37,754 bases of DNA, from positions 1 through 37,754 of the forward strand of contig JBGVQH010000192.1 in the NCBI GenBank assembly GCA_045127475.1. The letters are read 5' to 3'. Shown one piece after another: positions 7,973-23,510 of this stretch. Position 1 is the stretch's first letter. The number at the start of each line of letters is the position of its first letter. Made by a program: the position numbers and the translations under genes. The stretch comes from Candidatus Scatosoma sp. GTDB lineage: Bacteria > Bacillota > Clostridia > Christensenellales > Borkfalkiaceae. The notes under the pieces were generated by a model. It had not been told where the DNA came from and did no database searches. It saw only the letters and a list, made by a program, of their open reading frames with translations.

Positions 7973-8710
7973 TTAGTCTCTTCTTCTATTGCCGAACATC
8001 ATCATAACCCACAGGAAAAAGCGCAGGAAATAAATCAACGAAGTCAGCAAAGAGGCAACGTAGGTCATTGCCGCCGCCGTCAGCATTTTTTCCGCAGCAG
8101 GCAATTCGTCCTCCGACAAAACCCCTTCCGCAACCAACATTTTCTTGGCTCTGCGGCTGGCATCAAATTCTACGGGCAAGGTTACCAGCAAAAACACCGT
8201 GGACAGCCCGTACAAGGCAACCCCTGCCATCGCTAAATAAAAGCCAACGTCCGAATTTTGCGTAGTCATAACAAACACGTCCAAAATCAAGCCAAGCAAG
8301 ACTAAGGGCAACGCCAATCTACTGCCCACGTTGGTAATAAACACTAGCCCGTTGCGGACTTTATAGGGGAGATACCCTTTCTTTTTCTGCACGGCGTGCC
8401 CGACCTCGTGCGCCGCCACCGCAACCGCCGCCAAGCTGTCGTTTCCATACACCCCCTCGGACAAATTAATAACTCCCTTGGTCGGGTGATAATGGTCAGA
8501 GAGCGTACCGTGCACTCTTCCCACCTCGACGTTGCGGATATGATTCGCGCGGAGCAGCCGCACCGCCGTATCCCGTCCCGTCATGCGCGAACGGGTATAA
8601 TATTGATTGTATTTGCTGTATGCGCGGTGCAATCTTGCGCTTGCCGCTCCGCTAATAAAGGCACACAAAACCATGCACGCCAACGAAATAATATAATATT
8701 TATAAAACAT
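7973..8710 (-). CDS. YugP-type membrane zinc metallopeptidase (Zn_peptidase_2 family)
   Basis: Translation has the family pattern TGRDTAVRLL...LSDHYHPTKGVINLSE...AAHEVGHAVQ (HExxH) and C-terminal transmembrane segments. Confidence 0.85.
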   Translation of the reverse strand: MFYKYYIISLACMVLCAFISGAASARLHRAYSKYNQYYTRSRMTGRDTAVRLLRANHIRNVEVGRVHGTLSDHYHPTKGVINLSEGVYGNDSLAAVAVAAHEVGHAVQKKKGYLPYKVRNGLVFITNVGSRLALPLVLLGLILDVFVMTTQNSDVGFYLAMAGVALYGLSTVFLLVTLPVEFDASRRAKKMLVAEGVLSEDELPAAEKMLTAAAMTYVASLLTSLIYFLRFFLWVMMMFGNRRRD

Positions 8711-8801
8711 CTCGCATTCCTTTTGGCAGTCTTACACCGCCGTTTTCATATTAGTATATATAGTATAACCGCTTTTTATTCGTTTTAAGCGGCTACACCT
8801 A

Positions 8802-9605
8802 TCAAAGGTCAATGGAAAAAGGATAGAGCTCCGATTTGGAAACCCCACGGTCTTTCGCTGCACGCTTTAACGCCTCTTTTTTATCCAAGCCCGCCAACAT
8901 ATAATGCTGAATATGCTCCCGTTCGCTCAATGCGTTCAGGGGGCTCTCTTTTTCTTCCGCGCCGCCGACAATCAGGACGTATTCGCCACGCTTTTCGCCC
9001 GCCAAGCCTTGCGACAAAGTAAAGTTTTTCGCCTCTTCGTGGATTTTGCTTATCTCGCGCACCGCGCACGCAGATCTATCCCCAAACACCTCGTACATTG
9101 CCTTAATATCCTTGTCCACGTCTTGGGGTGCAGAATGGAAAGCAAGAGTCAAAGCGCTGTCTTTATACTTTTCAAGCAGTGCCTTTTTCTCCCCCTGTTT
9201 TTCGGGCAAAAATCCGATAAACGCGAACCGTCCCGCGGGCAACGCCGACAAAACGAGCGCCGCCACAAAAGCGCATGCCCCAGGGATAAGGGTATACGGT
9301 TCGCCGTTGTCGCGCAAATACTTGCAGACGATATTGCCAGGATCAGATACGACAGGCGTGCCCGCGTCGGACACCACCGCTACCTTTTCCCCCCGCCTCG
9401 ACGCCGCCAAAATCTTTTCCGCCGCTTCCGTTTCATTGAATTTATGACACGCATACAAGGGCTTTTTTATCTCGTATGCGTTCAACAGCTTAACGGTATG
9501 CCGCGTATCTTCACAAAAAATAACGTCCGCTTCTTTAAGCGTTTCCAACGCACGCAGCGTAATATCCTTTAAATTGCCAATCGGCGTTGCTACAAAACTG
9601 ACCAT
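8802..9605 (-). CDS. rsmI: 16S rRNA (cytidine1402-2'-O)-methyltransferase
   Basis: N-terminus VATPIGNLKDITLRALETLKEADVIFCEDTRHT is the RsmI signature. 267 aa. Confidence 0.92.
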   Translation of the reverse strand: MVSFVATPIGNLKDITLRALETLKEADVIFCEDTRHTVKLLNAYEIKKPLYACHKFNETEAAEKILAASRRGEKVAVVSDAGTPVVSDPGNIVCKYLRDNGEPYTLIPGACAFVAALVLSALPAGRFAFIGFLPEKQGEKKALLEKYKDSALTLAFHSAPQDVDKDIKAMYEVFGDRSACAVREISKIHEEAKNFTLSQGLAGEKRGEYVLIVGGAEEKESPLNALSEREHIQHYMLAGLDKKEALKRAAKDRGVSKSELYPFSIDL

Positions 9606-9614
9606 ACTCGCTCC

Positions 9615-10319
9615 TTATCTGTTGACTATCGTTTCCAAAATTTCACAGGCGGGTTTTCCGCCCTTTACCCCCTCAATCATAACGAGATAGGGTTTCATCG
9701 CGACACGTCCCCCCACAAATTGAATTTTTTTCACCTCGATATGCTCTTCGTGCAACGTATAACAAACTTCCGCTAAGCGGTCGGCGCGGTGCAACATGCA
9801 CAACCTCCCGCCGAATTTCAGGGCAAAACTCGCCGCCCGCGCAATCTCTTGCAGGTTCAGCGTGATTTCCTTGCGGCAAACGGCTTTTTCATACTCGTCG
9901 TTGTCAAAGCCCGTACCCGCACGCTCATACGGTGGATTGCATAAAATCAGCGAAAATTTTTCGTGGTACGCTTTGTCTATTTCCTGCAATCTGCCTTGTA
10001 CAACAGAAAAATTATCAAACCCGTTATACGCCGCCGTTTTTCTTGCCAAAGCGCAAAGACCGTCCTGCATTTCGAACAACGTAACGGGCATCTTCGGGGC
10101 TTTGTCCTTGTTCAGGGCGTAAAAATGAAAGCCGACAATGCCGTTCCCCGCGCAAAAATCCGCCACTACGTCCCCCTTTTTCCATTTGGCAAAACGGGAT
10201 AACAGCACCGAATCGGATGTAAAACGGTACAGCCGAGTGTCCTGCACGATTTTCAGCCCGTCTAACATCATATCTTCCAGAACTTCGTATTCACCTAAAA
10301 CAAGTCGTTCGTCCGCCAC
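9615..10319 (-). CDS. SAM-dependent N6-adenine methyltransferase, YabB/TrmN6-like (NPPY motif)
   Basis: Motifs DFCAGNGIVG (SAM binding) and LILCNPPYE. Probable GTG start at 10319 behind GAGAGGAAAA. The ORF track's longer form (to 10415) adds an implausible Cys/Trp/Lys-rich leader. Adjacent to rsmI, as yabB-yabC are in Bacillus. Confidence 0.75.
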   Translation of the reverse strand: MADERLVLGEYEVLEDMMLDGLKIVQDTRLYRFTSDSVLLSRFAKWKKGDVVADFCAGNGIVGFHFYALNKDKAPKMPVTLFEMQDGLCALARKTAAYNGFDNFSVVQGRLQEIDKAYHEKFSLILCNPPYERAGTGFDNDEYEKAVCRKEITLNLQEIARAASFALKFGGRLCMLHRADRLAEVCYTLHEEHIEVKKIQFVGGRVAMKPYLVMIEGVKGGKPACEILETIVNR

Positions 10320-10424
10320 CGATTTTCCTCTCTTTTTTCTTTCAGTATACCATTTTTTGCATAAAAAGTCAATACCCCAACCCCCTTTCGCATATTTTTC
10401 TGCGCCAACACACAACCTATTTTC

Positions 10425-11954
10425 GTGAACACGTTAAATCTCTCTTTACAAAAAAATTTGGACGAAATCAAACGGCGTTTGCCCTCCGAAGACGTTTTGA
10501 CCTACGCCTTTACAATGGCAGATAACACCGCCTGTGCGATTGTGTACGCCGAGGGCGTGGTAAACAAGCAGCTTTTAGGCGACCTTGTGGCGCGCCCGCT
10601 TTCCCGTCTTTCTATGCCAAAAAACGAAAAAGGCGGGGGGACGGGTCGCGATGAAAAAGAAAAAGCCTACCAAAACAGCGCCAACAATACTTCGTCGCCG
10701 CAATCCTTTTTAGAGAAAGCGTTGCTTTTCCCCGAGCTGAAAACCGCCGACGATTTTACAAAAGCGGAAAAAGAAATTTTGGACGGGAATAGCTTGCTGT
10801 TGGTGGACGGCGTAGCGCAAGGCTTTATTGTCGGTGCAAAACTATTGCCCAACCGCGCCGTCATCGAGCCACCCACCGATATCGCGGTAAAAGGCCCGCG
10901 CGAAGGCTTTATCGAGGACGTAAAAACCAACATGTCGCTGGTTAGAAAACGCTTAAAAACGCCCGATTTGCGCTTTGAAACGGTGCGCGTGGGCAGATGC
11001 ACAGATACCGCCGTAACCATTTGCTATTTAAGCGGTATCGTGGACGAAAACGTAAAAAATTCCGTCAAAAAACAGCTGGACGGCATACAAATCGACAACG
11101 TAGCCGATTCGTCGTATATCGCCGCCATGCTCTCTCCGCGCAAACACTCCATTTTTCGCACCATCGGCACGACGGAAAAACCCGACGTATTCACGGCAAA
11201 GCTTTGCGAGGGCAGAGTGGGCGTGATTGTGGACGGGTCGCCGATTGCGCTTACCATGCCTTATATTCTCACCGAGGATTTACAAAGCAGCGAAGATTAT
11301 TTTATCTCCCCATTTGCCGCAACTTCCTTTCGATTTTTGCGCACGATTGCCCTGTTCATTGCCATACTTTTGCCCGGATTTTACGTCGCGGCGCAATTAT
11401 ATAAAATCCAACTGCTACCCTTAGGGCTTACTCTCACCATTGCCAGCAGCGTACGCCAAATTCCCCTGTCGCCTAGTATGGAAATGTTCGTCGTTTTACT
11501 CCTGCTCGAAATCCTAAAAGAGGCAAGTATCCGTATGCCCAAATACGTGGGGATGTCCCTATCCGTTGTCGGTGCTCTCGTGCTTGGCGAAACGGCGGTT
11601 TCCGCAGGCTTTTTGTCCACCCCTGCCATCATAATCGTTGCATTTTCGGGCATTTGCCTGTACACCGTGCCCAACTTCGTGGAAACAGGTAGCTTACTAC
11701 GCTGGCTTTTCCTACTGGTAGCAGGCAGCCTTGGCGCACTCGGCATTGTGCTGTTTGCCGCGTTTTTGCTCTACTACCTCGTATCGGCAGACGCGTTTGG
11801 AGCTCCCATTCTCGCACCTTTTTCCCCTCTCATTTCCCACGACCTGCGGGATACTGTCGTGAAATACGACATGTTCTCCCTCACCCAGCGCCCGAAGTTG
11901 TTTCACGTGAAAAATAAAACGCGTTTTCGTCCGCCGAACACGGACGCAGAATAA
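10425..11954 (+). CDS. Spore germination receptor subunit A (GerA/GerK A-type)
   Basis: 509 aa. The soluble N-terminal domain (IVYAEGVVNKQLL, PPTDIAVKGPREGFIED, KRLKTPDL) plus C-terminal multi-TM region is typical of GerAA-family proteins. GTG start. Confidence 0.9.
   Translation: MNTLNLSLQKNLDEIKRRLPSEDVLTYAFTMADNTACAIVYAEGVVNKQLLGDLVARPLSRLSMPKNEKGGGTGRDEKEKAYQNSANNTSSPQSFLEKALLFPELKTADDFTKAEKEILDGNSLLLVDGVAQGFIVGAKLLPNRAVIEPPTDIAVKGPREGFIEDVKTNMSLVRKRLKTPDLRFETVRVGRCTDTAVTICYLSGIVDENVKNSVKKQLDGIQIDNVADSSYIAAMLSPRKHSIFRTIGTTEKPDVFTAKLCEGRVGVIVDGSPIALTMPYILTEDLQSSEDYFISPFAATSFRFLRTIALFIAILLPGFYVAAQLYKIQLLPLGLTLTIASSVRQIPLSPSMEMFVVLLLLEILKEASIRMPKYVGMSLSVVGALVLGETAVSAGFLSTPAIIIVAFSGICLYTVPNFVETGSLLRWLFLLVAGSLGALGIVLFAAFLLYYLVSADAFGAPILAPFSPLISHDLRDTVVKYDMFSLTQRPKLFHVKNKTRFRPPNTDAE
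11899..11914. promoter_or_regulatory. parS-like centromere site (15/16 match to TGTTTCACGTGAAACA)
   Basis: TGTTTCACGTGAAAAA, read directly inside the 3' end of the Ger A-subunit gene. One mismatch, at position 15. Confidence 0.6.
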
Positions 11955-12030: not shown

Positions 12031-13260
12031 TTGCAGACAAAAAACACCACCGTTTATCCCAGCGCACCCAATAAAAACCAAACCGTTTTGCCCCGCCAAG
12101 TGGCGCTTGCCGCCGCATTTTTATTACCGCTGGGCAAATTTTTAGAAGTTCCTGCCCTTTTATCCCGCTACGCAAAGGGGGATATCTTATTACCTGCGCT
12201 GTTGCATTTCCTCATCGAAACGCTGGTGCTGCTTGCGGTGCTCTACGCCGCCACACGCAGCGACAAAACGTTGATTGAACGCATGAACGCCGCCCTTGGC
12301 AAATGGTCGGCTCTCGTCTACGTGCTGTTCGCGGTGTATTATCTTTTTGCCGCGTTACTTCCTATTTTGGATTTGGAAAAATTTGTCTATGCGGTATTTT
12401 TCGATACCGCCCCTACCGTATTTTACTTTGCGGCGTTTTTCCTTTTTTCTGCCTTTTTTGCCTCCAAGGGCATCAAGTCAATAGGACGAGTTGCCGACCT
12501 TTGCGTTTTTCTGTTCGTTTTGCCCTTTTTGGCTCTGATTATTATGTCGTTTACCGAAACGGATTTTTCTCACCTGCTCCCCTTTTTCGGCACAAAATTT
12601 TCTGACGTTTTGCGCGGTGTTCGCTATACGTCCCCCCACTTTTCCGACACAATCCTGCTTTTGCCCCTTATTGCAAATTGTCGGTTTTCTTCCCACGACG
12701 CCGACAAAAAAACCTCCCACACAAAAATCGACCACGCCAAAGGGAGCAAACAAATCGTACTTGGTTACGCCGTCGGAGCGGCTCTTACCTTGCTCCTTTT
12801 TGCCGTATTTTATTCCGTTTTCAGCTCGATAGCTCCGCGCGAACATTATGCTTTTTCTAAAATCGCGCAATACTTCCCCGCGCTGGAGGTTATCGGTCGA
12901 GTAGATTTGCTTTTTGTCTACCTTTTGACCGTCGCGCTCTTTTTCTATACCTGTCTTCCCATTCATTATACGACGGGGTGTATCGCAAACACCCTGCGCG
13001 TACACCGCCGCACGTGGATTTCGGCAATCCTCAATTTTTCCCTGTTCCTTTTTGCCCTGTTCTGCAACCGCTTTTACAACGCCTTTTACAGTGTAATTGC
13101 CGGTCGTCTTGCCCCCATTTTTTGGTTCGTTGCAGACATGCTCCCCCTGCTTTTACTTTTTCTGCCGAAAAACGGAAAGCCGAACTTTGCCCCGCCAACG
13201 CCCAAAAATTCTGTGCGCGCCGCCGCAAAAAAATCGAAAAAGGAGAACGCAAATGCATAA
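12031..13260 (+). CDS. Spore germination receptor subunit B (GerAB-type permease)
   Basis: About 10-TM hydrophobic protein directly between the A and C subunits. APC-like spore germination permease pattern. The start codon (TTG at 12031) is uncertain. Confidence 0.8.
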   Translation: MQTKNTTVYPSAPNKNQTVLPRQVALAAAFLLPLGKFLEVPALLSRYAKGDILLPALLHFLIETLVLLAVLYAATRSDKTLIERMNAALGKWSALVYVLFAVYYLFAALLPILDLEKFVYAVFFDTAPTVFYFAAFFLFSAFFASKGIKSIGRVADLCVFLFVLPFLALIIMSFTETDFSHLLPFFGTKFSDVLRGVRYTSPHFSDTILLLPLIANCRFSSHDADKKTSHTKIDHAKGSKQIVLGYAVGAALTLLLFAVFYSVFSSIAPREHYAFSKIAQYFPALEVIGRVDLLFVYLLTVALFFYTCLPIHYTTGCIANTLRVHRRTWISAILNFSLFLFALFCNRFYNAFYSVIAGRLAPIFWFVADMLPLLLLFLPKNGKPNFAPPTPKNSVRAAAKKSKKENANA

Positions 13261-14515
13261 CGTACACACCCGCAACACCGTGCGCTATTATATTTTAATT
13301 GTCGCTGTCCTTGCTTTTTTGTTTTTTTCCAACGACTTCGGCTTGACCGACGTGCAAAAAACGGCAATCGTGATGGCTGTCGGCATCGACCGTGAGGAGG
13401 ACGAGTTTATTTTAACCTCCCAAATCGCCGTGCCGCAAGCCTCCAAGCAAGGCGACGCCACGCAAACCGTCCAGCTTGTTAGCCGCGGTAAAACCGTTGC
13501 CGAGGCGTTTGAGCAAATCAACGCCAAAACGGGTTGGTATCCCAAGCTCGTGTTTTGCAAATTAATCATTCTTGGCGGAAAAGCCGCAGAAGAGAACGTT
13601 TTTGACGCGCTTGATTTCTTTCTTTTGGACGAATACCTTTCGGACGGTTGCTTGGTGGCGACCTGCGACGGGCTCGCCAAGGATTTACTCAACACTGCCG
13701 CGCTCGTCGACCCGTCCAGCTCCGTTGCCATGACCAAAGTCCTCTCCCCCCATGCCCAACGCGTAGGCACGGTGCTCCCGAATACCTTGCGCGAGTTCGC
13801 CATAGGGTATTTTAGCGAGAGCAAAAGCGGATATTTGCCCATATTAAAAACCGAGCCGCAACAGGAAAAAATTGGCAATGAGGGGGAGACGGGTTCAAAC
13901 GAAAGCCAAAATGGACAAAGCGACGGGCAGCAAAGCGCTCAGGGTGGTGGACAAGCCGCCTCACAAGGCAATGCACAAGGCGCACAGAGCGGACAAAACA
14001 CTGAAAAGCCGATATTCAGCGCACAGGAAACTGCGTTGTTCGTGGCAGGCAAGCGCGTGGGCACACTGACCGCAGAGGAAACGTTTGCCTATAACGCCGT
14101 AAAATATCAGCTACGCCTTGCCTCGTATTCTGTAGACAGAAAGGACGGAGTATGCACCCTTTCCGTCAAAAGCAACAGTCCGAAACGAAAGCTGCAGGTC
14201 GGCAAAGACGGCAGCGCCAACTTCAAAATTGACCTTACCCTCAGCGCAGGGCTTTTGGACAACTCCTACTCATTGCCCTTGAACGAAATTGTGGACGTTG
14301 GGGACGTTCCTGGCGACGTTTTCACCGCCGCGCAAAAAAAGCTGTCGGGCGAAATCAAAACGCTGTTTGAAAAGAGCAAAGCAATCAGGTGCGACTTGTT
14401 CGGCGTGCGAGAGCTGCTTGTCAAATACCAAAACCGCAGCTTGCACCGTTTTCAAGACACCTTGCTTTCTAACACAACCATTTCCGTCAACGTTACCTTT
14501 CAAAACGTTCGCTAA
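13253..14515 (+). CDS. Spore germination receptor subunit C (Ger(x)C-type), N-terminal membrane anchor without a lipobox Cys
   Basis: ATG at 13253 is preceded by AAAGGAG and overlaps the B-subunit stop (ATGCATAA). Contains the Ger(x)C-like AVGIDREEDEFILTSQIAVP motif. The internal Q/G/S-rich low-complexity insert is unusual. Confidence 0.8.
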   Translation: MHNVHTRNTVRYYILIVAVLAFLFFSNDFGLTDVQKTAIVMAVGIDREEDEFILTSQIAVPQASKQGDATQTVQLVSRGKTVAEAFEQINAKTGWYPKLVFCKLIILGGKAAEENVFDALDFFLLDEYLSDGCLVATCDGLAKDLLNTAALVDPSSSVAMTKVLSPHAQRVGTVLPNTLREFAIGYFSESKSGYLPILKTEPQQEKIGNEGETGSNESQNGQSDGQQSAQGGGQAASQGNAQGAQSGQNTEKPIFSAQETALFVAGKRVGTLTAEETFAYNAVKYQLRLASYSVDRKDGVCTLSVKSNSPKRKLQVGKDGSANFKIDLTLSAGLLDNSYSLPLNEIVDVGDVPGDVFTAAQKKLSGEIKTLFEKSKAIRCDLFGVRELLVKYQNRSLHRFQDTLLSNTTISVNVTFQNVR

Positions 14516-14560
14516 CCTTTCGCGGCTCGTTGCTGCACAATTTTCTCGTTTTTTTGTAGG

Positions 14561-15021
14561 TTATCCACCACACAAAAGTTATCCACATTCCCGCTTTTAT
14601 CCTCTTTTCTTTCCTTTGCAAGAAAACGGGTTTCTTGTCGGTTGCTGTCGAAAAATACGATTATAAATTCATACCGTATATAAAAAATTAAGGTTATCCA
14701 CTGAAAAAGTGGATAAAATAGGGTTGTCCACACCACAAAATTACTTTTTGTGGATAAACACCCCCTTTATCATCATAGAAAATTTTATAAAACCGATTAA
14801 AAATCGCTAAATCCCTTTATTTCCCCAACTTTTCTTTGTGGATAACTTTGTCCACACGTGCATTTTTCTTTTATTTTTTGGTGATTTTTTCGTGGATAAG
14901 TGTGTAAGAAAACGAAAATTGTGGATAAGATTCACACATCATCCCGCAAAAAACCACAGAAAACGGGCTTTTTATCCACAAACATTCGTTCTTTTTGTAT
15001 TCTTTCCTAAAGTTATCCACT
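14561..15021. promoter_or_regulatory. Dense DnaA-box cluster A (12 boxes) in a convergent intergenic region
   Basis: Perfect TTATCCACA/TGTGGATAA at 14579, 14749, 14837, 14930 and 14972. One-mismatch boxes at 14561, 14694, 14708, 14724, 14848, 14891 and 15013. Includes the 23-bp palindrome TTATCCACTGAAAAAGTGGATAA (14694-14716). The last box is followed by TAA-CCCGCC and an AT-rich tract. Confidence 0.9.
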
Positions 15022-15110
15022 TAACCCGCCGATAGCATAAATGTATATCTTTATACAAACGCATAAATTTTCCGTGTTTTAAAGCAAAAGCCTTTCTGTA
15101 AAATCGCAAG

Positions 15111-15134
15111 AAAAAAGCCCGATTTTTTTCGGAC
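15111..15134 (-). terminator. Weak intrinsic terminator for cvpA
   Basis: On the minus strand: GTCCGA-A7-TCGGGC (one G-U pair) followed by T6. Short stem, so low confidence. Confidence 0.4.
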
Positions 15135-15176
15135 TTTTTCATTTTTTATCAAAATTTATACGACAAGAAACGCCCG

Positions 15177-15884
15177 TCAAAGCACCAAGCTAAGCAACCA
15201 AAGCACGGGATTATACTTATATATAAACCCGATAAGAATACTTCTATTCAGCGCATTGCTGACCGACTGTACGGGGATAATCGTAAACACGGTAAGAATA
15301 AAGCTGACCAACAGTGTAAAACCCAACACTCCGACAAACGCGCCCAACAAACTGTTTGCCGCCCCGACAAGCTTTAAGCGTTGTGCAACCCCTTCCAACA
15401 CGCCCTTCATCAAGCGCATCAACAATTTCGCCAAGATAAAAATAGCCACTCCGCAAAGAACCGTCGTTGCTAAGGACGAAGTAACGTCCCCAAGCGCCAC
15501 CGCCAACACTGTGCCCTCCTGTGCGCTCTTCGTCATTTTCAACACAAGCTGAACCAAAATTGCCGACATATTTTTGTCTTTTAACGCCGCCTCCGTGCCC
15601 TCGCCAACGACGTGCGTATCAAAGCCCTTCACCCGCATAAACGCATCCGTAAACGTTTTGTCCAGCGTCTTTTTCAATCCGAACAGCCCGTCCGTCGCGT
15701 TCACCAATATTTTTGCTAAAAAAATAGCAGCAAGCAACGCAATTACCGTCGAGAAAAAGCCGAAAAAGCAGTCTATAAAACCCCGTTTGGCGCAATAGAT
15801 TACGTATCCCAGCAGCACCAACGCCAAAACGCCGTCCAAAAGATAATTCGTCCAACGCACAGCGCAAAGATTTTGCAAAAACAT
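15177..15884 (-). CDS. cvpA: CvpA-family membrane protein
   Basis: Start moved to the ATG at 15884 (AAAGGAGAAATT upstream). N-terminal pattern NYLLDGVLALVLLGYVIYCAKRGFI plus 4 TM segments is typical of the colicin V production protein family. Confidence 0.75.
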   Translation of the reverse strand: MFLQNLCAVRWTNYLLDGVLALVLLGYVIYCAKRGFIDCFFGFFSTVIALLAAIFLAKILVNATDGLFGLKKTLDKTFTDAFMRVKGFDTHVVGEGTEAALKDKNMSAILVQLVLKMTKSAQEGTVLAVALGDVTSSLATTVLCGVAIFILAKLLMRLMKGVLEGVAQRLKLVGAANSLLGAFVGVLGFTLLVSFILTVFTIIPVQSVSNALNRSILIGFIYKYNPVLWLLSLVL

Positions 15885-16118
15885 AATTTCTCCTTTGCGG
15901 CGCAACCTCTAAGGTGCGCCCTCGCGTGTATATTCTTCCCGTTTGCACACCTATTATACCACAACCTCCACGCCTTTTCAAGCCCCAAACGTCAATTCTT
16001 ACACAACTTTTTGCAATTTTCCTCGTTTCCGTTTAATAAGCGCTCCTTTTGGCTATATTCTCTATTGCACGCGCGCACCGCGCGTTGCATACCAAAATCA
16101 AACGGAGCTTTTTAACCA

Positions 16119-16805
16119 ATGGAGTACGCTTTTCACGTATACAACAAGCTTGCCACAGACGGCGCGACTATGTCCTTACACCACCTTTTAAACGGCGCTT
16201 ATCAACGCAAAAAACACAAAAAGCGGGGGGACGTATCGCGTTCAAGCCAAAATGTAGCAGTTAAAGACGAAGAAACTGCGCTCCTCGATACAACCGCGCC
16301 CAACCCGCCTATCGTCGTTTGCGTGGGGAGCGACCTTGCCATCGGGGACAGCCTTGGCCCGATTGTCGGCTCAATGCTGCAATACAAAACGCAGGGTTTA
16401 AATACCTTTATTTATGGAACGCTTTCCGCGCCCGTTACCGCCAAAGAAATCGGCACAATCCGTACCTTTTTGCGTGAAACCCACCGCGGAGAGCAGGTTC
16501 TTGCTATCGACGCCGCCGTGGGCGACAAAGGGGATATCGGGCTGATTAAGCTGAGCGATACCCCCCTGCTCCCCGGTGCAGGTGCAAACAAAAATCTCGG
16601 TGCAGTGGGGGACGTGTCGATTATGGCGGTCGTAGCGGAAAAATCGGTTAGCAATTACGGGCTTTTAAACACCACCCGCCTAAACCTTGTGTATTCCATG
16701 TCCGAAATCATTTCCGACGCGGTCGCCGCGTTACTTTGGGAGCGTTGCTCGGCAAAAAACAGCCGCAAAAACGACGTCGCTTACGCCAACAACTACGCTA
16801 GGTAA
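16119..16805 (+). CDS. yyaC: Spore protease YyaC (DUF1256)
   Basis: Core VVCVGSDLAIGDSLGPIVGSML...AIDAAVG matches the YyaC family signature. The N-terminal start is uncertain (alternative Met 18). Confidence 0.8.
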   Translation: MEYAFHVYNKLATDGATMSLHHLLNGAYQRKKHKKRGDVSRSSQNVAVKDEETALLDTTAPNPPIVVCVGSDLAIGDSLGPIVGSMLQYKTQGLNTFIYGTLSAPVTAKEIGTIRTFLRETHRGEQVLAIDAAVGDKGDIGLIKLSDTPLLPGAGANKNLGAVGDVSIMAVVAEKSVSNYGLLNTTRLNLVYSMSEIISDAVAALLWERCSAKNSRKNDVAYANNYAR

Positions 16806-16831
16806 TGCTAAAATTTTTTTCATAAAAACGC

Positions 16832-16861
16832 TTGACAGCGTTACGTTCGCCGTGCTATAAT
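16832..16861 (+). promoter_or_regulatory. Sigma-A promoter upstream of the preQ1 riboswitch and queT (TTGACA-18-TGcTATAAT)
   Basis: -35 TTGACA at 16832-16837. Extended -10 TGCTATAAT at 16853-16861. Confidence 0.65.
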
Positions 16862-16869
16862 AACCCACG

Positions 16870-16915
16870 AACGGGAAGGTTTTCGGTAAACACTTCCAAA
16901 TAAAAAAACCGAGGT
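16870..16915 (+). ncRNA. preQ1-I riboswitch (translational, sequesters the SD)
   Basis: P1 GGAAG (16874-16878) / CTTCC (16893-16897). The loop GTTTTCGGTAAACA contains UCGG, which can pair with CCGA in the A-rich tail AAATAAAAAAACCGAGG (pseudoknot P2 overlapping the GAGG SD). Same layout as the B. subtilis queC aptamer. It sits directly upstream of queT, a known preQ1-regulated gene class. Confidence 0.65.
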
Positions 16916-16923
16916 ACAATTTT

Positions 16924-17457
16924 ATGCAGAACTTTTTTTCGACCAAACGTCTTTGCCGCGCGGGGGTGATTGCAGCCCTGTACGTGGTGCTGACGTACGT
17001 GTTTGCGCCCTTTGCTTTCGGACCATTCCAGCTCCGACCTGCGGAGGCGCTTTGTATTTTACCCCTCTTTTATGCAGACGCTATCCCCGCCCTTTTCGTC
17101 GGGTGCGCGCTGTCTAACCTAATTTCCGCATACAGCGTTTTCGACGTCGTTATCGGCTCACTAACCACCCTTTTGGCGGCAATTTGCACCTATCTAATCG
17201 GCAGAATTTTTAAGAAGCCCCCCATACGTATCGCGCTCGGCGGCATTTTCCCCGTTTTATTCAACGCGTTTATGATTCCCGTAATTATCGTCATCATCTT
17301 CGGCGACACGGGCAATTATTCGTCCGTAACGGTGGCGTATTTTATGAATACCGTCAGCATCGGCGCAACGCAATGCATCTGGGTTTACGCCCTCGGCACA
17401 CCTCTGTATTATATCGTTTTACGCCTGCGCAAACGAGGCGTCGCTCTCTTCTTATAA
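16924..17457 (+). CDS. queT: Queuosine precursor transporter QueT (ECF S-component type)
   Basis: 177-aa polytopic protein. The N-terminal motif AGVIAALYVVLTYVFAPFAFGPFQLRPAEAL is typical of the QueT family. preQ1 riboswitch upstream. Confidence 0.85.
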   Translation: MQNFFSTKRLCRAGVIAALYVVLTYVFAPFAFGPFQLRPAEALCILPLFYADAIPALFVGCALSNLISAYSVFDVVIGSLTTLLAAICTYLIGRIFKKPPIRIALGGIFPVLFNAFMIPVIIVIIFGDTGNYSSVTVAYFMNTVSIGATQCIWVYALGTPLYYIVLRLRKRGVALFL

Positions 17458-17516
17458 CGCTGTTCTTCAACCGCGTAAACCCCGTAACAATCCCGCTATC
17501 TAATTTCTACATACGA

Positions 17517-17548
17517 TAAAAGACGGAGCTAAAAAGCTCCGCCTTTTC
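17517..17548. terminator. Bidirectional intrinsic terminator between queT and jag
   Basis: Stem CGGAGCT / AGCTCCG (17524-17530 / 17535-17541), loop AAAA. A-run upstream and TTTT downstream. Confidence 0.6.
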
Positions 17549-17558
17549 TGTTTATACA

Positions 17559-18533
17559 TTATTCTTTATCTTCGCCGTTGCCGCTATTTCCAAGGAAAAT
17601 CCCAAAGAAATCGTTGGACGGTTTCAGGCTCGTTCCGCCCGAATTTCCACCGCCCGAGGGTTTTCTATCGCGGTTAAAAGGTTTTTTACCAAAGCCGCCT
17701 TTGCCGCCTCTGCCGCGGTCATTTCTGTCGCCAAAGCCACGGTCGCGGCCTCTGCCACCACGGTGATTATAACCGCCCCTTTCGCGGCGATCTCTTTCCG
17801 TTCTTGCGGGAATTGCAGGTGCATCGGGGTCTTCTACGTTGTTAGGTACAATAACGATATAGCGGTTGGGTTCTTTCCCCTCGCTCTCCGTTTTCACTTC
17901 TTCATTTTCAGACAAAGCCGCATGGATAATTCTTCTTTCGTACGGGTTCATCGGTTCAAGTTGAATTTTCTTGCCCAACCGAACGGCTTTTGCAGCAAGG
18001 TTATCCGCCAGCTTGTTCAAGGTCGCCTCGCGGTTCTCGCGGTAATTCTCGCAATCCACCACAACGCGCTTGTAATCATCCCTGCCCGTATTCGCAACCG
18101 CGCCCGCTAAGGTTTGAATCGCGTCCAACATTATGCCGTGTTTGCCGATAATCGACGTCGTGTTTGCCGCCGTTACGTTGATTTCTACCTTTTCACCCTC
18201 GGAAACCAGCTCCGTACAAGCGGTGATATTAAGCAATTTAAACAGTCCTTCCAAGAAGATAACCGTTCTTTCGCCGTCCGTAGCGTTTTCGCCTGCCGTT
18301 TCAATTACAGGCGTAGCGTTTTCCGCTTTTTCAGCCTTTTCCGATGCCTCCACAACGGCTTCTGCAGTTTCCTTTGCTGCAATTTCTACGCGTGCCTTTA
18401 CAGCGCCGAACAGCTTTTTCTTTCCTTCTTCCAAAACGCGAATATCCGCATTCTCTCTCGTGAGCCCGAGCTCGCTCAATCCCTTTTCAACGGCTTCATC
18501 CACCGTCTTGCCCGTAAATTCGGTATAAATCAT
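17559..18533 (-). CDS. khpB: RNA-binding protein KhpB/Jag (Jag_N + KH + R3H) with a C-terminal RGG-rich extension
   Basis: Start at the ATG at 18533 (GAGGAGAGATAAA upstream). Jag_N-like N-terminus (GKTVDEAVEKGLSELG), KH motif IIGKHG, R3H motif NPYERRIIHAAL. Located downstream of yidC, as in Firmicutes. Confidence 0.9.
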   Translation of the reverse strand: MIYTEFTGKTVDEAVEKGLSELGLTRENADIRVLEEGKKKLFGAVKARVEIAAKETAEAVVEASEKAEKAENATPVIETAGENATDGERTVIFLEGLFKLLNITACTELVSEGEKVEINVTAANTTSIIGKHGIMLDAIQTLAGAVANTGRDDYKRVVVDCENYRENREATLNKLADNLAAKAVRLGKKIQLEPMNPYERRIIHAALSENEEVKTESEGKEPNRYIVIVPNNVEDPDAPAIPARTERDRRERGGYNHRGGRGRDRGFGDRNDRGRGGKGGFGKKPFNRDRKPSGGGNSGGTSLKPSNDFFGIFLGNSGNGEDKE

Positions 18534-18583
18534 TTTATCTCTCCTCGTTCCGCGTTTGTGAAACACGGAACTACATATCTCTC

Positions 18584-20131
18584 TTATTTCTTTTTATTCT
18601 TTTTGTCGCTAGGCGTCTTGTCCTTATTTCTGTTGACCGCCGCCGCTCTGCCCGAAAGCACCTTATCGCCCTTAGCCGTCGCACCTGCCGCCTTTTTGTT
18701 CGCCGCCAAATCCACCAGCTTATTGATTACAATCATGGACAGCAGCGAGAACAGGTTGCTGACAACCATGTAAATCGAGAATGCCGAGCTGTACATAAAC
18801 GAGAACACCGCGAACATACCCGTCATGATGATCATCATCATTTTCTGCTGGCTGCCGCTCTGCCCGTCTACAGACGAATATTTATTTTGCTCTTTCTGCG
18901 AACGCATGGATATCCATTGTTGCAGCAAAATCGTACCGATCGAGAGCAAAATCATGATATAATACCCGTTTGCCTCGCTCTTTTGTGCGCCGAGCTTGCC
19001 CGTTACGTTATGATAGCCCTCGTCGGAATACGCCGTAATCATCAAAATCGACTTGTCCCCTTCCTTACACGAACAAGACTTTCTTTCGATAATTTCTTGG
19101 CTGAAATTGCCATAGCTCAACACGGGGTGCTTATAGGTTGCGTCCACCGCCCACACGTTTTTAATCCAAAGGAATTTGGTGTCCTTTTTCACGGTGCTGT
19201 GGTACACTTCTACGACCCTGTCCTGCGCGGGGCTGACAAATTCTTGCTTAATCAACGTTTGCTGTGTTTTCAGCGTTAATTCATCCGCCGTCAACGTCGT
19301 GCCTGCCGCAGCCGCGTCGTCTTGAATACTCTTTTCAATCGCCGCAATAATCTCGCCGTTTTCGGAAGAATATTTATCCCAATTTAAGAAATAATTTTTT
19401 CGATTGCTGTTTTCAACGTATTTTAAAATATCCGCTTTGTTTGTTTCAAAAACGTCCTGATTGAAAACGTAGCTCTTTTCGCCCGTATCTCCGTCAACCG
19501 TAGGCGCAACCTCTTGCGTTACCGTATAATAAATATACTTGTCGTTTTCCGCAACGGTATACGTAACGGTCATACCCGTTACCGTGGAAACGCCCGTTTC
19601 TTGGTTGGTGGTCGTATTTTCCTGTACCGTCCACGTCAAATTTTCTTCATCAAATTCCGCACAGTTTTCCAACATGTTTTCGTTGTATGCGCGTACCATG
19701 GTATTATAATTTTCCACGTTGGAATAGGACGAGAACGCGTTGAACGCGTTGATGGCGACGATAAAGATCACCAAGGACAAAATCATCGGCAAGCAGGACG
19801 ACATCATGGAAATCCCGTTCTCACGATACATTTCCATAACCTTTTGGTTATACTTATCCTTGTCGTTTGCGTACTGCTTTTGCAGCTTTTCCATGCGCGC
19901 CTGATTTTCTTTCATTTTCTGGTTCTGCTTGCGCATGTTGATACGCTGGAACACATCAAACGGCATCGTAATCAATTTCAAAAGCAGGGAAAATAAAACG
20001 ATACCCACGCCGACCGATCCGCAAACCGTCGTCAGCCATAAAATAATTTTCCCGATCCAGTTGAGCGAAACGCTGTGCAGCTGCGAATAAATCGGCATAC
20101 CCACGCCCGCTAATACGTTCATAATTCCCAT
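18584..20131 (-). CDS. yidC: Membrane protein insertase YidC/SpoIIIJ, long form (515 aa)
   Basis: YidC core features: TM1, the basic coiled-coil hairpin RKQNQKMKENQARMEKLQKQY, MYRENGISMMSSCLPMILSLVIF, FLWIKNVWAVD, C-terminal TMs and a lysine-rich tail. Operon position between yidD and jag. Confidence 0.88.
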   Translation of the reverse strand: MGIMNVLAGVGMPIYSQLHSVSLNWIGKIILWLTTVCGSVGVGIVLFSLLLKLITMPFDVFQRINMRKQNQKMKENQARMEKLQKQYANDKDKYNQKVMEMYRENGISMMSSCLPMILSLVIFIVAINAFNAFSSYSNVENYNTMVRAYNENMLENCAEFDEENLTWTVQENTTTNQETGVSTVTGMTVTYTVAENDKYIYYTVTQEVAPTVDGDTGEKSYVFNQDVFETNKADILKYVENSNRKNYFLNWDKYSSENGEIIAAIEKSIQDDAAAAGTTLTADELTLKTQQTLIKQEFVSPAQDRVVEVYHSTVKKDTKFLWIKNVWAVDATYKHPVLSYGNFSQEIIERKSCSCKEGDKSILMITAYSDEGYHNVTGKLGAQKSEANGYYIMILLSIGTILLQQWISMRSQKEQNKYSSVDGQSGSQQKMMMIIMTGMFAVFSFMYSSAFSIYMVVSNLFSLLSMIVINKLVDLAANKKAAGATAKGDKVLSGRAAAVNRNKDKTPSDKKNKKK

Positions 20132-20208
20132 AATTTACCTTTTTAACTCAAACGAAAACCGTCCGTAATGCTTTCGTTTTCGATTTTTCGTTCTTTATTT
20201 CTTTGCAT

Positions 20209-20424
20209 TTACAACAACCAGCGTTTTGCAAAATATCGTTCGGGCTCAGGGTCATATCCTCCTTTGGAAAAGGGATTGCACCGCAATATTCTCCACGCCC
20301 CCAGCAAAATCCCAATTAGCGCACCGTGGTTGTTGATACAGCGCATCGTATATTCCGAACAGGTGGGATTATACCGACAGGTTTTGCGCGAAAGGTATTT
20401 TTGATAAAAACGAATCATTCGCAT
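20209..20424 (-). CDS. yidD: Membrane protein insertion efficiency factor YidD
   Basis: MIRFYQKYLS...CRYNPTCSEYT...HGALIGILLGAWRILRCNPFSKGGYDP is the YidD signature. Start ambiguous: the ORF is open up to 20535, which would overlap rnpA. Confidence 0.85.
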   Translation of the reverse strand: MRMIRFYQKYLSRKTCRYNPTCSEYTMRCINNHGALIGILLGAWRILRCNPFSKGGYDPEPERYFAKRWLL

Positions 20425-20507
20425 ACAAATAACCTTCCCCGGTTTTGAAAAAATATGCCGATAAAGCCAGCCTAAATTTTCAAAAAACAGAGAAATCGCA
20501 TTGACTT

Positions 20508-20825
20508 TTACAAATTCTCTTTTTTGATTATACATTGTAAATGCCGTTCAAAGGTTTTTAGTGCATACTCTTGCTCCACTTTCGGAATTAACAGAATATG
20601 ATACTTCCCGTCTATCTCCTCTTGTACGGAGCGGAACGCCTCGCGTAATAATCTCTTAATACGGTTGCGCATCACGGCTTTTCCGTGCCGTTTTCCCACG
20701 GAAATCCCCATCGTCATTTTTTCCGCCTTATGATATACGACGGTCAGCGACGGAGAAAATCCCCGTTTTCCCTTTTGAAACAACCTTTGAAAGTCCGCTT
20801 GTTTTTTTAATCGCAAATACTTCAT
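20508..20825 (-). CDS. rnpA: Ribonuclease P protein component
   Basis: 105 aa. LKKQADFQRLFQKG...GISVGKRHGKAVMRNRIKRLLREAFR (RNR motif). Downstream of rpmH. Confidence 0.92.
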   Translation of the reverse strand: MKYLRLKKQADFQRLFQKGKRGFSPSLTVVYHKAEKMTMGISVGKRHGKAVMRNRIKRLLREAFRSVQEEIDGKYHILLIPKVEQEYALKTFERHLQCIIKKENL

Positions 20826-20975
20826 TTTTCTAAATCAAAAGCTTTTTTAAGGGTGTTTTTTGTAAAAAAACAAAAAATTTTACCAAAACCCGCTTTCGCT
20901 ATTAAAATGGCAAATCCTTTCCCTTGCAAAAGGGAAAGGAAATGAATTGTTTTTTACCGTTTACTTTCAGAAAAA

Positions 20976-21110
20976 TTAGTGGGTCAGTCTTTTTCTACCC
21001 TTATCTCTTCTTCTCTTCAACACCTTTCTGCCAGCGGTCGTTGCCATTCTCTTACGGAAACCGTGTACTTTGCTCTTCTGTCTTTTCTTGGGTTGATAGG
21101 TTCTTTTCAT
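20976..21110 (-). CDS. rpmH: 50S ribosomal protein L34 (44 aa; below the ORF-track size cutoff)
   Basis: Hand translation of the minus strand gives [44 protein letters not shown], then a stop. AGGAGAAAACATT sits upstream of the ATG at 21110. Confidence 0.95.
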
Positions 21111-21179
21111 AATGTTTTCTCCTGATTTGGTTTTTTCTTTTTTTGGTGGTTATCGCGTTTCTCCCCACAATAACTCCCA

Positions 21180-21209
21180 TATTATACCGCAAAGGCAAGA
21201 GTTAGGTCA
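21180..21209 (-). promoter_or_regulatory. rpmH promoter (TTGACC-18-TATAAT) in the 158-bp dnaN-rpmH spacer
   Basis: On the minus strand, -35 TTGACC at 21209-21204 and -10 TATAAT at 21185-21180. Confidence 0.65.
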
Positions 21210-21268
21210 AGCAATTTTACTCTCTTTTTTCGCTTTTCTTCGGGAATTTATAGGGATTTTGCCTTTTA

Positions 21269-22378
21269 TCAGTTTCCATTGCCGGTGCGTACGGGCAAAA
21301 TTAAATACTGATTTTTGTTGTCGTTTTCGTTTTCAAGCGTGAACGGTGAAACGGCAGTATTAAACGAAAGTATTACGTTTTCTTCGTTGAGCGCCTTGAG
21401 CGCGTCCAAAATATATTTGCCGTTCATGGCAATTTTTAATTCTTTTCCGTTCAGCTCGGCAGCTACCGTTTCTTCTACCTTACCCATTTCCGAGTTTGCG
21501 TTGATGACGATTTTACCAAGTTTAATATCCAGCACGATTAAATTGTTTTTATCCCCTCTGATTAAAACGGACGCTCTTTCGATACTGTCTATCATTTCCG
21601 CACGTTTCACCAAAACTTTCGTCGTGAAATCGATAGGATAAATGTTTTCTTTTCTGACGAATTCGCCCATATATAAACGGGAAGTAATCACAGTATCCGA
21701 AACGCCTACCGACAATACATTTTTGTCCGCATAAATTTTCAACGCGTCGTCGCCGTCCAGCATACGGGAAATTTCAATCAACGTTCTTGCAGGACAAACG
21801 ATTTTTAAATCGCCGTTCTCTGCCGACGCGTCGCAGTACGACGTTGCCATTCTAAACCCGTCAAGAGCCGTCGCCGTCAGCTTTCCTTCTTTCGTTTCCA
21901 AAAGACAGCCCTTTAAAATCGGTCGGCTTTCGTCCGTTGCGCAACAGAATACGACCTTGGAAATCAATTCTTTCAAATCGTTTTCCTTTGTTTTAAAATA
22001 TGCCTTGTCCTCCCAGTTTCTTTCCCCCATTTTCGGAAATTCGTCCGCGGGTAAGGATTGCATGTACGTTTCACTGTCGCCGTATTTAATGATAATCCCC
22101 TTTTCATCGGAGGTAATCACAACCTCGAACGCAGAAATTTTATTGACGAAATCGGAAAACGTCTTACCGTTTACACACAATTCGCCCTCTTCCATAATCT
22201 CGGCAATCACCTTTTTTTCAATCGAAATCTCCCCGTCGTACGCAACGAGGGTAATTCCATCGTTTGCCGCCTTTATTTTTATACATTCCAAAATCGGGGT
22301 AATCGTTTTTACTGCACACGCCTTGCTTACCGTCAAAGCCGCATCCGAAAGCAAAGTTCCGTTACATACAAATTTCAT
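21269..22378 (-). CDS. dnaN: DNA polymerase III beta sliding clamp
   Basis: 369 aa. The N-terminus MKFVCNGTLLSDAALTVSKACAVKTITPILECIKI and the overall three-domain length are typical of DnaN. Confidence 0.93.
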   Translation of the reverse strand: MKFVCNGTLLSDAALTVSKACAVKTITPILECIKIKAANDGITLVAYDGEISIEKKVIAEIMEEGELCVNGKTFSDFVNKISAFEVVITSDEKGIIIKYGDSETYMQSLPADEFPKMGERNWEDKAYFKTKENDLKELISKVVFCCATDESRPILKGCLLETKEGKLTATALDGFRMATSYCDASAENGDLKIVCPARTLIEISRMLDGDDALKIYADKNVLSVGVSDTVITSRLYMGEFVRKENIYPIDFTTKVLVKRAEMIDSIERASVLIRGDKNNLIVLDIKLGKIVINANSEMGKVEETVAAELNGKELKIAMNGKYILDALKALNEENVILSFNTAVSPFTLENENDNKNQYLILPVRTGNGN

Positions 22379-22432
22379 CTTCTTAATCTCCTAAATCCGC
22401 ACTTTTAAAAGGCTACTTTTTTTATCTTCTCT

Positions 22433-22486
22433 ATTGTACCATATCCCCGTTTTTTTTGCAAGTCAAATCACGGTTTTTTATCCACA
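22433..22486 (-). promoter_or_regulatory. dnaN promoter (TTGCAA-17-TGgTACAAT) with a perfect DnaA box just upstream
   Basis: On the minus strand, TGTGGATAA (22486-22478), then -35 TTGCAA (22461-22456) and an extended -10 TGGTACAAT ending at 22433. Confidence 0.6.
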
Positions 22487-22493
22487 TTTTTCC

Positions 22494-23006
22494 TTATAGG
22501 AAAATTATTTTTGAAAGGGGGTGTAATTTTTGAAAAATTTTCACCGTATACGCAGCGCCGCCCTCTTTCTTTTTACAATAGGCAATCATCACTTGCGCGC
22601 GCTCTGCCATATACCTGTCCCGCACCTGCATACAACCCCTGTAATAGGCAGGTGCAAGGGTTATTTTTTCGTCCGCTTTCTTTAAAATAGAAAGATAAGT
22701 TTTTTTATCCTTTTCGCAAAAATATTTTTCCTGTCCATAGCAGGGAATACAAGCTATTAATTTAATCTGCGGATATTTTTTCTTAAATTTCAACACGGCA
22801 TTTGCCGCCGTAAGGTCAAACCCCTTTGCCATACCGTTGTAAAAATCGGTTATACCATCTTTTATCAGATTTTCTATTTCTTTGTTTAATTTCCGCGCGG
22901 AAAAATCTTCGCCTAGCTCCCGATGCCCGGTGAAAACACACGCCTTATTCTGTTGTTCTTCACCCTGAGAATTTGGTAAAATTGAGAGCTGTTCTTCCAT
23001 TTTCAT
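22494..23006 (-). CDS. SLOG-fold DUF1273 (YpsA-like) protein
   Basis: 170 aa. The pattern CVFTGHR...GMAKGFDLTAANAVLKFKKKYPQIKLIACIPCYGQE...RDRYMAERAQVMIAYC...GGAAYTV matches the clostridial DUF1273/SLOG family layout. Noticeably more AT-rich by eye than most flanking genes. Confidence 0.75.
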   Translation of the reverse strand: MKMEEQLSILPNSQGEEQQNKACVFTGHRELGEDFSARKLNKEIENLIKDGITDFYNGMAKGFDLTAANAVLKFKKKYPQIKLIACIPCYGQEKYFCEKDKKTYLSILKKADEKITLAPAYYRGCMQVRDRYMAERAQVMIAYCKKKEGGAAYTVKIFQKLHPLSKIIFL

Positions 23007-23028
23007 TTTCCTTTTTTTATTTGTTATT

Positions 23029-23056
23029 ATTATATAATAAAATGAAAATTTGTCAA
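23029..23056 (-). promoter_or_regulatory. Near-consensus sigma-A promoter of the SLOG gene (TTGACA-16-TATAAT)
   Basis: On the minus strand, -35 TTGACA at 23056-23051 and -10 TATAAT at 23034-23029. Confidence 0.65.
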
Positions 23057-23109
23057 GACGGGAATGCCATAATTTTTGTGTTTTTTAGAAAAAATTTTTT
23101 ACCCTTTTC

Positions 23110-23437: not shown

Positions 23438-23510
23438 AGGTGGAAAGAACGGAAAAAAATTTATAAAAAAGATTGCTATTTTATAAGAAAAGTGTTATAA
23501 TAAAAGGGCT

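Follow-up and report, generated by a model that had tools for sequence, protein, structure and literature searches.

A dense cluster of DnaA boxes lies between the genes gerC and cvpA on a 37,754-nucleotide contig (JBGVQH010000192.1, assembly GCA_045127475.1) of Candidatus Scatosoma sp., an organism described as an uncultured spore-forming gut Clostridium. The contig was analysed over its full length and is referred to below as the window. The spacer between the two convergent genes comprises positions 14516-15176 (661 bp, GC content 0.34). On the left it is bordered by the stop of a Ger(x)C-family open reading frame (ORF) on the + strand (13097-14515) and on the right by the stop of a Colicin_V/CvpA-family ORF on the − strand (15177-15905). 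ORF ends and family assignments bear out the initial annotation, which had described the two stops as facing each other across about 660 bp. It had also counted 12 DnaA boxes in the spacer, five of them perfect, with some 0.004 perfect boxes expected by chance, and exact searches and shuffles returned the same figures. The perfect boxes TTATCCACA stand at 14579 (+), 14749 (−), 14837 (−), 14920 (−) and 14972 (+), and only two more are present outside the cluster in the entire 37.7 kb. Shuffled sequences contained a mean of 0.21 perfect boxes per window, or about 0.004 per 660 bp, and none of 100 shuffles reached seven. Twelve of the 26 boxes with at most one mismatch found window-wide fall within 14561-15021 (461 bp), the shuffle expectation being 6.3 per window or about 0.11 per 660 bp. 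Nowhere else in the window is the density of perfect boxes as high.

Such clusters can be scored by the A value of Ishikawa et al., which adds up the affinities of four successive TTATNCACA boxes and divides the sum by their mean distance. In Bacillus subtilis, A exceeds 0.3 only at eight regions bound by DnaA in vivo, and a DnaA-box cluster (DBC) is defined by at least four closely spaced TTATNCACA boxes with at most one mismatch and A > 0.3 (PMC2533591). The spacer reaches A values of 0.68 (14694-14757), 0.51 (14837-14928) and 0.31 (14891-15021), which places it above the B. subtilis threshold. The only other part of the window with A > 0.3 is the probable replication origin, oriC, at 23.0-23.5 kb (A 1.20), and the relatives show the same pattern. 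The cluster is intergenic, contained between the gerC and cvpA stops, and is located outside oriC, 8.1 kb to the left of it; proximity to oriC is typical of DBCs and not obligatory.

The boxes are arranged in two modules preceded by a variable edge. At this gerC-side edge (14561-14587, +), b1 (14561, TTATCCACC) and b2 (14579, TTATCCACA) have column conservation of 0.63 and 0.78, and the relatives carry one to three boxes there in differing arrangements. The left module (14694-14757, b3-b6) is rigid and consists of b3 (14694, +), b4 (14708, −), b5 (14724, +) and the perfect b6 (14749, −); across 12 orthologues, to which the conservation values below also refer, b4, b5 and b6 score 0.97, 0.95 and 0.97. 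It is followed by an AT-rich linker (14758-14836), which in alignments measures 83-88 bp among relatives and is unconserved in sequence. The right module, b7-b13, starts at 14837-14928 with the perfect b7 (14837, −), b8 (14848, +), b9 (14891, −) and the perfect b10 (14920, −), conserved at 0.94, 0.56, 0.93 and 0.70, respectively. The perfect b11 (14972-14980) is fused to AAAC-ATTC-GTTCTTTT (14980-14995), and together they form a composite site (14972-14995, +) evident from the sequence and from a motif scan. Only 32 bp separate b11 from the next box. At 15013-15031 (+), b12 (15013, TTATCCACT, conservation 0.96) is accompanied in the window by a decayed second tandem box, TTAACCCGCC. Boxes b4, b6, b7, b9 and b10 read GTGGATAA on the + strand and b11-b13 read TTATCCACA; because of these opposite readings, the two box arrays face each other. 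The inverted and everted pairs pointed out earlier are present as described, for example the palindrome TTATCCACTGAAAAAGTGGATAA at 14694-14716 and the pair TGTGGATAA-CT-TTGTCCACA at 14837-14856. Terminator-like hairpins close both flanking genes. The one on the cvpA side (15108-15136, −), read from the sequence with its flanking A and T runs, is likely a bidirectional intrinsic terminator of cvpA that would insulate the cluster, and equivalent hairpins were scored at the related loci L019 and L023.

Related loci (L numbers) were collected by scanning species-representative genomes with CvpA as the anchor (six loci, belonging to Candidatus Scatosoma and to one Clostridiales metagenome-assembled genome, MAG), by a DNA-pattern scan of metagenomes (nine or ten further cluster-bearing contigs) and by protein search with contig look-ups (five more loci, CvpA identity 32-55%). 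MAG contigs, such as that of L003, may hold assembly errors. The cluster was found in about 20 related Candidatus Scatosoma-like assemblies whose CvpA is 32-72% identical to that of the window, and a dense DnaA-box cluster adjoins cvpA at every locus that spans the region. The synteny queT-yyaC-cvpA-cluster-gerCBA is common to all loci except L003. Since the gerCBA/cluster/cvpA junction recurs in more than 15 independent assemblies, it is not an assembly artefact, and a contig chimeric at the spacer, one of the objections anticipated in the initial annotation, is ruled out. Conservation of the cluster in relatives, on which that annotation had made its reading depend, extends to these approximately 20 assemblies.

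Seven boxes (b4, b5, b6, b7, b9, b11 and b12) are near-invariant, with column conservation of 0.93-0.98, and box columns in general average 0.84 as compared with 0.59 elsewhere. The near-invariant boxes retain orientation and spacing while the spacers between them diverge. Conserved box offsets are +41, -52, -80, -135, -222 and -263; across lineages, b4 and b6 are 41-42 bp apart, b7 and b9 54-56 bp, b9 and b11 79-81 bp, and b11 and b12 40-42 bp. The larger length changes of the right module (L015, L017, L013, L003 and L027) amount to 9-11 bp, about one helical turn, which suggests that the rotational phasing of its boxes is under constraint. Judging from the alignments, the boxes are under purifying selection across a deep clade, and the conserved spacing together with the helical-turn indels points to an ordered nucleoprotein complex and not to a loose collection of sites.

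The module is inverted between cvpA and gerC in L027 and L028, and at L003 it is relocated between ftsH and an inverted cvpA. At L029 it stands on the rsmG side of the origin, still about 8.5 kb away. Comparison of L029 (1-11500) with the window (14500-28900) reveals an origin-symmetric inversion that reaches about 5.7 kb to either side and spans jag to the gene of an EamA transporter; it shifts the cluster to the other replichore without changing its distance from the origin. This distance is 7.8-10.6 kb in the window, L004, L005, L006, L027 and L029. As far as the compared loci indicate, the cluster is an autonomous module, which persists when inverted, across replichores and with changed neighbours. 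Additional DNA was noted beside it at two loci. A 627-aa ORF without a Pfam match (8566-10449) is inserted between cvpA and the cluster in L028 and is absent from the otherwise near-identical L027. At L003, about 600 bp of GC-richer, inverted-repeat-rich non-coding DNA (8760-9360), with no counterpart elsewhere, lie between ftsH and the cluster; this may be what is left of a mobile element, or a structured RNA.

Besides the boxes, several short motifs are conserved. The flank of b11 reads AAAAGAAC-GAAT-GTTTGTGGATAA on the − strand, a GAAC-N4-GTTT palindrome, and the reverse complement of the whole site, AAAAGAACGAATGTTTGTGGATAA, contains this Firmicute-type LexA-operator-like sequence. A search with GAAC-N4-GTT(C/T) finds it as GAACGAATGTTT at 14980-14991 (−). 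The site matches 17 of the 20 positions of AGAGAACAAATGTTTGTAGA, the Clostridioides difficile recA operator oligo used in binding assays (PMC4234289). The pattern used for metagenome retrieval fixes the b11 flanks, so that only the CvpA-anchored loci are independent for this motif; in the loci that CvpA alone had identified, no change is seen in the half-sites, whereas N4 is variable (ATTC, GAAT, GTTC, AAAC, ATAC). GAAC-N4-GTTT occurs three times in the window with 4.1 occurrences expected, which is not above chance, and the argument for the motif therefore rests on its conservation; the other two matches are not next to SOS-type genes. The predicted LexA-like site has no sigma-70-like promoter nearby, and the sequences covered contain no recA, lexA or uvr gene from which the operator of the clade could be read.

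Towards the gerC side, the two direct heptamers TGTCGGT-TGC-TGTCGAA (14636-14652, +), separated by a 3-bp spacer, resemble the '0A box' of Spo0A, whose consensus is TGTCGAA (PMC3485338, PMC5295017), and Spo0A may bind there. One heptamer is perfect and the other has two mismatches; they are 10 bp apart. TGTCGAA-like heptamers in a 10-bp register occupy the aligned place in eight of nine lineages (window, L002, L004, L005, L006, L026, L027 and L029), while the TGTCGAA-like count in the window is not above chance. The 0A-box assignment is tentative because the same bases read TTGACA on the opposite strand in some relatives. Next to the heptamers stands the non-box motif AAAATACGATTATAAA (14652-14667, +), whose blocks AAAAATAC and ATTATAAA are kept across the 12 orthologues; conservation of AAAATACnATTATAAA at these positions extends to the protein-anchored loci. 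The motif is otherwise unique in the window: a repeat of AAAATACnATTATAAA at the origin was considered and discarded, the only match there having two mismatches in AT-rich DNA and being judged a chance one. On the cvpA side, the motif ATAAATGTATA (15037-15047, +) is unique in the window and its TGTATA block is kept. Far from the cluster, at 36960-37260, a TGTCGAA (37005), a one-mismatch DnaA box (37021) and a GAAC-N4-GTTT (37179) are found upstream of a TATAAT-type promoter; their co-occurrence is probably due to chance.

The probable oriC is located in the ypsA-rsmG intergenic region (23007-23510). Its core has the order TAGTAGTATTAGTAGTAG-GGCGGG-TGGAATTGTGGACAA, that is, six DnaA-trios (23154-23170, TAG TAG TAT TAG TAG TAG), a G-rich spacer and DnaA boxes, with more one-mismatch boxes thereafter (boxes at 23183-23413). 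This geometry matches the basal unwinding system (BUS), in which trios of the 3'-GAT-5' type stand no more than 16 bp from a DnaA box in the correct orientation and are followed by AT-rich DNA. Not one of the 17 nt of the trio array differs among the window, L004, L005 and L006, the CvpA proteins of these relatives being about 40% identical to that of the window. Two box groups flank AT-rich DNA in the 23-kb region, in addition to the unwinding module. Close to the unwinding element the core has one-mismatch boxes only, whereas the cluster holds perfect ones. The cumulative GC skew, a check proposed at the outset, has its minimum at 22.5-23 kb in the window; in L004-L006 the minimum coincides with the trio array. 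In all four the skew runs straight through the cluster. The trio array, the boxes and the skew minimum together therefore place the predicted functional origin at about 23.1 kb.

On the + strand, the gene order from the left is gerA, gerB and gerC (+), the cluster, cvpA (−), yyaC (+) and queT (+), continuing with jag, yidC, yidD, rnpA, rpmH, dnaN and ypsA (all −) and a spacer of about 500 bp of AT-rich DNA, to the right of which are rsmG (+), ricT (−) and holB (−). Some ten genes, from cvpA to ypsA, thus separate the cluster from the origin. No ORF of dnaA size or DnaA family is present in the window, as the initial annotation had said of the immediate neighbourhood, and dnaA is absent from all related loci of 20 kb or less. 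The segment 20976-23510 has a non-canonical arrangement, in which ypsA to jag are all on the − strand and dnaN is directly upstream of rpmH, without dnaA; it is kept in L004-L006, L027 and L029. The two perfect boxes outside the cluster are at 22478-22486, in the ypsA-dnaN intergenic region, and at 23831-23839, inside the rsmG coding sequence; the former could serve DnaA control of dnaN. The YidC homologue (18584-20131, −) is 515 aa, long for a Gram-positive bacterium, and its insertase domain is matched in two separate parts (residues about 39-130 and 389-473), so that a large insertion is implied. At the left end of the window, a 943-aa ORF (938-3769, −) has no Pfam family at E ≤ 0.001, and its coding strand is uncertain, as long ORFs overlap on the opposite strand.

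Three roles had been suggested initially for the spacer: a datA/DBC-like titration locus, the displaced half of a split bipartite oriC, and a second or ancestral origin. The first is retained here and the other two are disfavoured. The spacer is probably an origin-proximal, extra-origin DnaA-box cluster of the DBC/datA type that acts as a sink or control locus for the initiator, not a second or split origin. It lies outside the origin and yet about 8 kb from it, its A value of 0.68 is to be compared with the threshold of 0.3, and its boxes appear to be under purifying selection. In this reading the spacer would act in cis, as DNA, and would yield a complex of DnaA with DNA instead of a transcript. 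Its seven to twelve high-affinity boxes, in two rigid oppositely oriented modules, would bind DnaA cooperatively into a defined nucleoprotein complex. At about 8 kb from oriC, it would be copied seconds after initiation, which would at once double the supply of high-affinity sites. Since the origin has only one-mismatch boxes by its unwinding element, the cluster would compete for the initiator or inactivate it, and re-initiation would be delayed. A transcriptionally insulated element would in this way hold a DnaA complex beside the origin, buffering or inactivating the initiator. DnaA binding, the higher-order complex and the negative effect on initiation are predictions from sequence.

The closest counterparts are the DBCs of B. 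subtilis, which has six extra-origin clusters, mostly origin-proximal; loss of all six causes early initiation, and the effect of a re-inserted cluster scales with gene dosage (PMC3245932). The origin-to-terminus ratio is about 1.37-fold that of wild type in the strain lacking all six, and DBC[yydA-yycS] brings it back to about 1.0-fold. Like the B. subtilis clusters, the present one belongs to a Firmicute, is intergenic, has at least four TTATNCACA-type boxes with A > 0.3, and is near oriC with no dnaA adjacent. As in the conserved Bacillus DBC downstream of gcp (PMC2533591), the cluster lies on the 3' side of a gene, and it shares with the B. subtilis thdF-jag cluster a location in the jag/yidC/rnpA region flanking the origin. 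Unlike the B. subtilis DBCs, which have 4-8 boxes in peak windows of 44-96 bp, it has 12 boxes in 460 bp and is placed between convergent genes with no obvious regulated gene. Bacillus clusters differ between species, except those tied to dnaA, sda, ywlC, yydA and gcp (PMC2533591), whereas here position, box order and spacing are kept base by base across a deep clade. The LexA-operator-like and 0A-box-like motifs are a further difference, as is the fact that the cluster is known from sequence alone. Escherichia coli datA is likewise non-coding, origin-proximal and equipped with several high-affinity boxes, and restrains initiation; its function needs a defined architecture and an extra non-box protein site, and its early duplication matters. 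There is no sequence homology with datA, which belongs to another phylum and has about five boxes as compared with 7-13 here. datA works with IHF and promotes hydrolysis of DnaA-ATP, and IHF is absent from B. subtilis-type Firmicutes. The cluster combines boxes with the conserved non-box AT-rich motif at 14652-14667, IHF not being expected in this phylum. In Streptomyces, too, an extra-origin DnaA-box cluster near the origin region binds DnaA and is not the main origin. The secondary box cluster oriCII of Pseudomonas aeruginosa, near the origin, bound by DnaA and not the main origin, is similar in these respects (PMC13438810); it precedes and regulates the gidAB-parAB promoter, whereas the present cluster has no downstream gene in most lineages.

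Several points weigh against an initiator sink. Titration is contested in B. subtilis, where the deletion strain was not complemented by DBC[yydA-yycS] on a multicopy plasmid and a clear effect was seen for just two of the six clusters (PMC3245932). The organism is known only from MAGs, and both DnaA binding and phenotype are predicted. Conserved synteny and an origin-symmetric inversion could have kept the distance from oriC similar as a side effect. Simple titration needs affinity and number only, which leaves the strict spacing and the non-box motifs unexplained. Because these features are not required by simple titration, a more elaborate reading can tentatively be put forward, though it is rather improbable: the cluster may be a stress-gated initiator sink, a conserved, helically phased integrator in which SOS and sporulation signals gate the amount of DnaA held. 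LexA and DnaA would compete or cooperate at b11, so that cleavage of LexA in the SOS response would alter the DnaA held and couple damage to initiation, and the phased Spo0A boxes at the other end would act likewise at entry into sporulation.

Two rivals to the initiator sink make the cluster part of an origin. In the first, it is the distant accessory half of oriC, from which bound DnaA would loop over about 8 kb to the trio region and stimulate or time unwinding, a stretched version of incAB/incC or oriC1/oriC2. Bipartite origins separated by dnaA are usual in Firmicutes, and in a lineage without dnaA in the rpmH/dnaN neighbourhood an ancestral upstream cluster could have been displaced. The perfect boxes of the cluster, in contrast to the one-mismatch boxes of the origin core, and the similar cluster-origin distance in six genomes agree with this, and E. 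coli oriC tolerates the movement of one DnaA-box region across a gap of dnaA length (PMC13643167). The cluster resembles the bipartite upstream regions (B. subtilis incAB/oriC1, C. difficile oriC1) in having dense strong boxes without an unwinding element of its own, and Spo0A boxes occur in B. subtilis oriC as well; the cluster and these upstream regions may share ancestry, provided that the neighbourhood has lost its dnaA. The cluster differs from them in not being adjacent to dnaA or rpmH, in having no dnaA promoter, and in being separated from the unwinding module by 8 kb and about ten genes, with neither orientation nor side fixed. The halves of bipartite origins are separated by dnaA only, at about 1.3-1.5 kb, and here by 8.1 kb and about ten genes, none of them dnaA; set against the approximately 1.4 kb of known and engineered examples (PMC13643167), the range among the loci is 8-10.6 kb. 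Helical phasing, relevant in the engineered bipartite oriC (PMC13643167), could hardly be maintained over kilobases of coding sequence. Bipartite halves also have a fixed position and orientation, whereas the module is inverted in L027 and L028, so that its orientation to the origin flips, occupies the rsmG side in L029 and another site altogether in L003, where no trio array is found within 8-9 kb on either side; insertions lengthen the intervening distance in some loci. The 23-kb region, with two box groups around AT-rich DNA plus an unwinding module, is complete by itself. A distant half of a split origin is thus possible but unsupported, and quite unlikely. The second rival is a second, backup or ancestral origin able to fire alone. 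It would account for the highest density of perfect boxes in the window and for the oppositely oriented arrays around an AT-rich linker of 80 bp, superficially a 'bilateral' origin, and the T-run after b11 passes the loosest published rule (three or more NAN triplets no further than 16 bp from a box). The cluster lacks a BUS-type unwinding module, however. No GAT-type trio array is present in the window cluster or its orthologues: in a triplet scan of eight orthologous clusters on both strands the best six-triplet stretches were poly-A runs at non-conserved places, whereas the true origin bears the invariant six-trio array. The sequence after b12 in the window has no three in-phase T-centred triplets, in line with the earlier remark that a clean trio periodicity was lacking. 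The GC skew of the window and of L004-L006 does not turn at the cluster, the linker is unconserved in sequence and length, and the 32 bp from b11 to the next box leave no room for an unwinding element. The initial annotation had further noted that the box at 15013 is followed by TAA-CCCGCC and AT-rich DNA, as at the 23.1-kb core. The sequence there, TAACCCGCC and then AT-rich DNA, is as stated, but the parallel with the origin core does not hold: the GC cluster is present in none of the relatives, most of which have a second tandem DnaA box in that place (AAAAGTTATCCACAGTTATCCACA; TTATGCACG in L002). CCCGCC is therefore a decayed box, its likeness to the origin core being a coincidence of decay, and a second origin is very unlikely.

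The remaining rival turns the spacer into a regulatory hub, whose boxes, LexA-like and Spo0A-like sites would control promoters within it. Its outputs would be a non-coding or antisense RNA or, as the arrangement at L003 suggests, cvpA-yyaC-queT; the hub would be comparable to the DnaA-activated sda promoter of B. subtilis. At L003 the cluster immediately precedes a + strand cvpA, whose coding start lies about 115 nt beyond the conserved TGTATAAA. Promoters are where LexA operators and 0A boxes normally act, and in B. subtilis sda, ywlC and yydA are regulated by DnaA from DBCs. Moreover, the conserved ATTATAAA is TATAAT on the opposite strand, and a TTGACA-16-nt-(GATATT/TATTGT) match coincides with the 0A-like site in L006 and L023. 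Both flanking genes, on the other hand, point into the cluster in more than 15 lineages. A consensus scan found no sigma-70-like promoter in the window cluster, the sole match overlapping the cvpA stop, and in L006, L019 and L023 promoter-like matches were no commoner than in shuffles and held no conserved position. This, together with the terminators of both genes, is consistent with the original statement that no promoter is needed here. An Rfam search of the whole window at gathering thresholds gave no hit, which speaks against a known RNA; when 14400-15300 was searched by E-value, nothing but terminator-like matches below threshold appeared. A small protein gene was likewise rejected: the short ORFs within the spacer consist of box sequences and lack conservation, and the 96-105 aa ORFs called in L026 and in L029/L030 have no counterpart in the window. 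Conservation is limited to short blocks resembling protein sites, and the entire module is inverted in L027 and L028 without loss. A regulatory hub is accordingly unlikely, if slightly less so than a distant half of the origin, and a DBC/datA-like initiator sink is preferred to all of these.

Extra-origin DnaA-box clusters are firmly established in only a few model species. How they act in Firmicutes has yet to be settled; Okumura et al. stated that they could not identify the structural traits by which regulatory clusters differ from inert ones (PMC3245932). The phenomenon itself is already established, and here it is met in an uncultured lineage of gut Clostridia, a clade of family level whose origin lacks dnaA. 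The approximately 20 orthologous clusters provide comparative data on which boxes, orientations, spacings and extra motifs are retained over deep divergence. As the densest perfect boxes are not at the origin, origin predictors based on box density could misplace oriC by 8 kb in this lineage. Should the LexA-like and Spo0A-like sites prove real, DNA damage and sporulation would be tied to the control of initiation via a DNA element.

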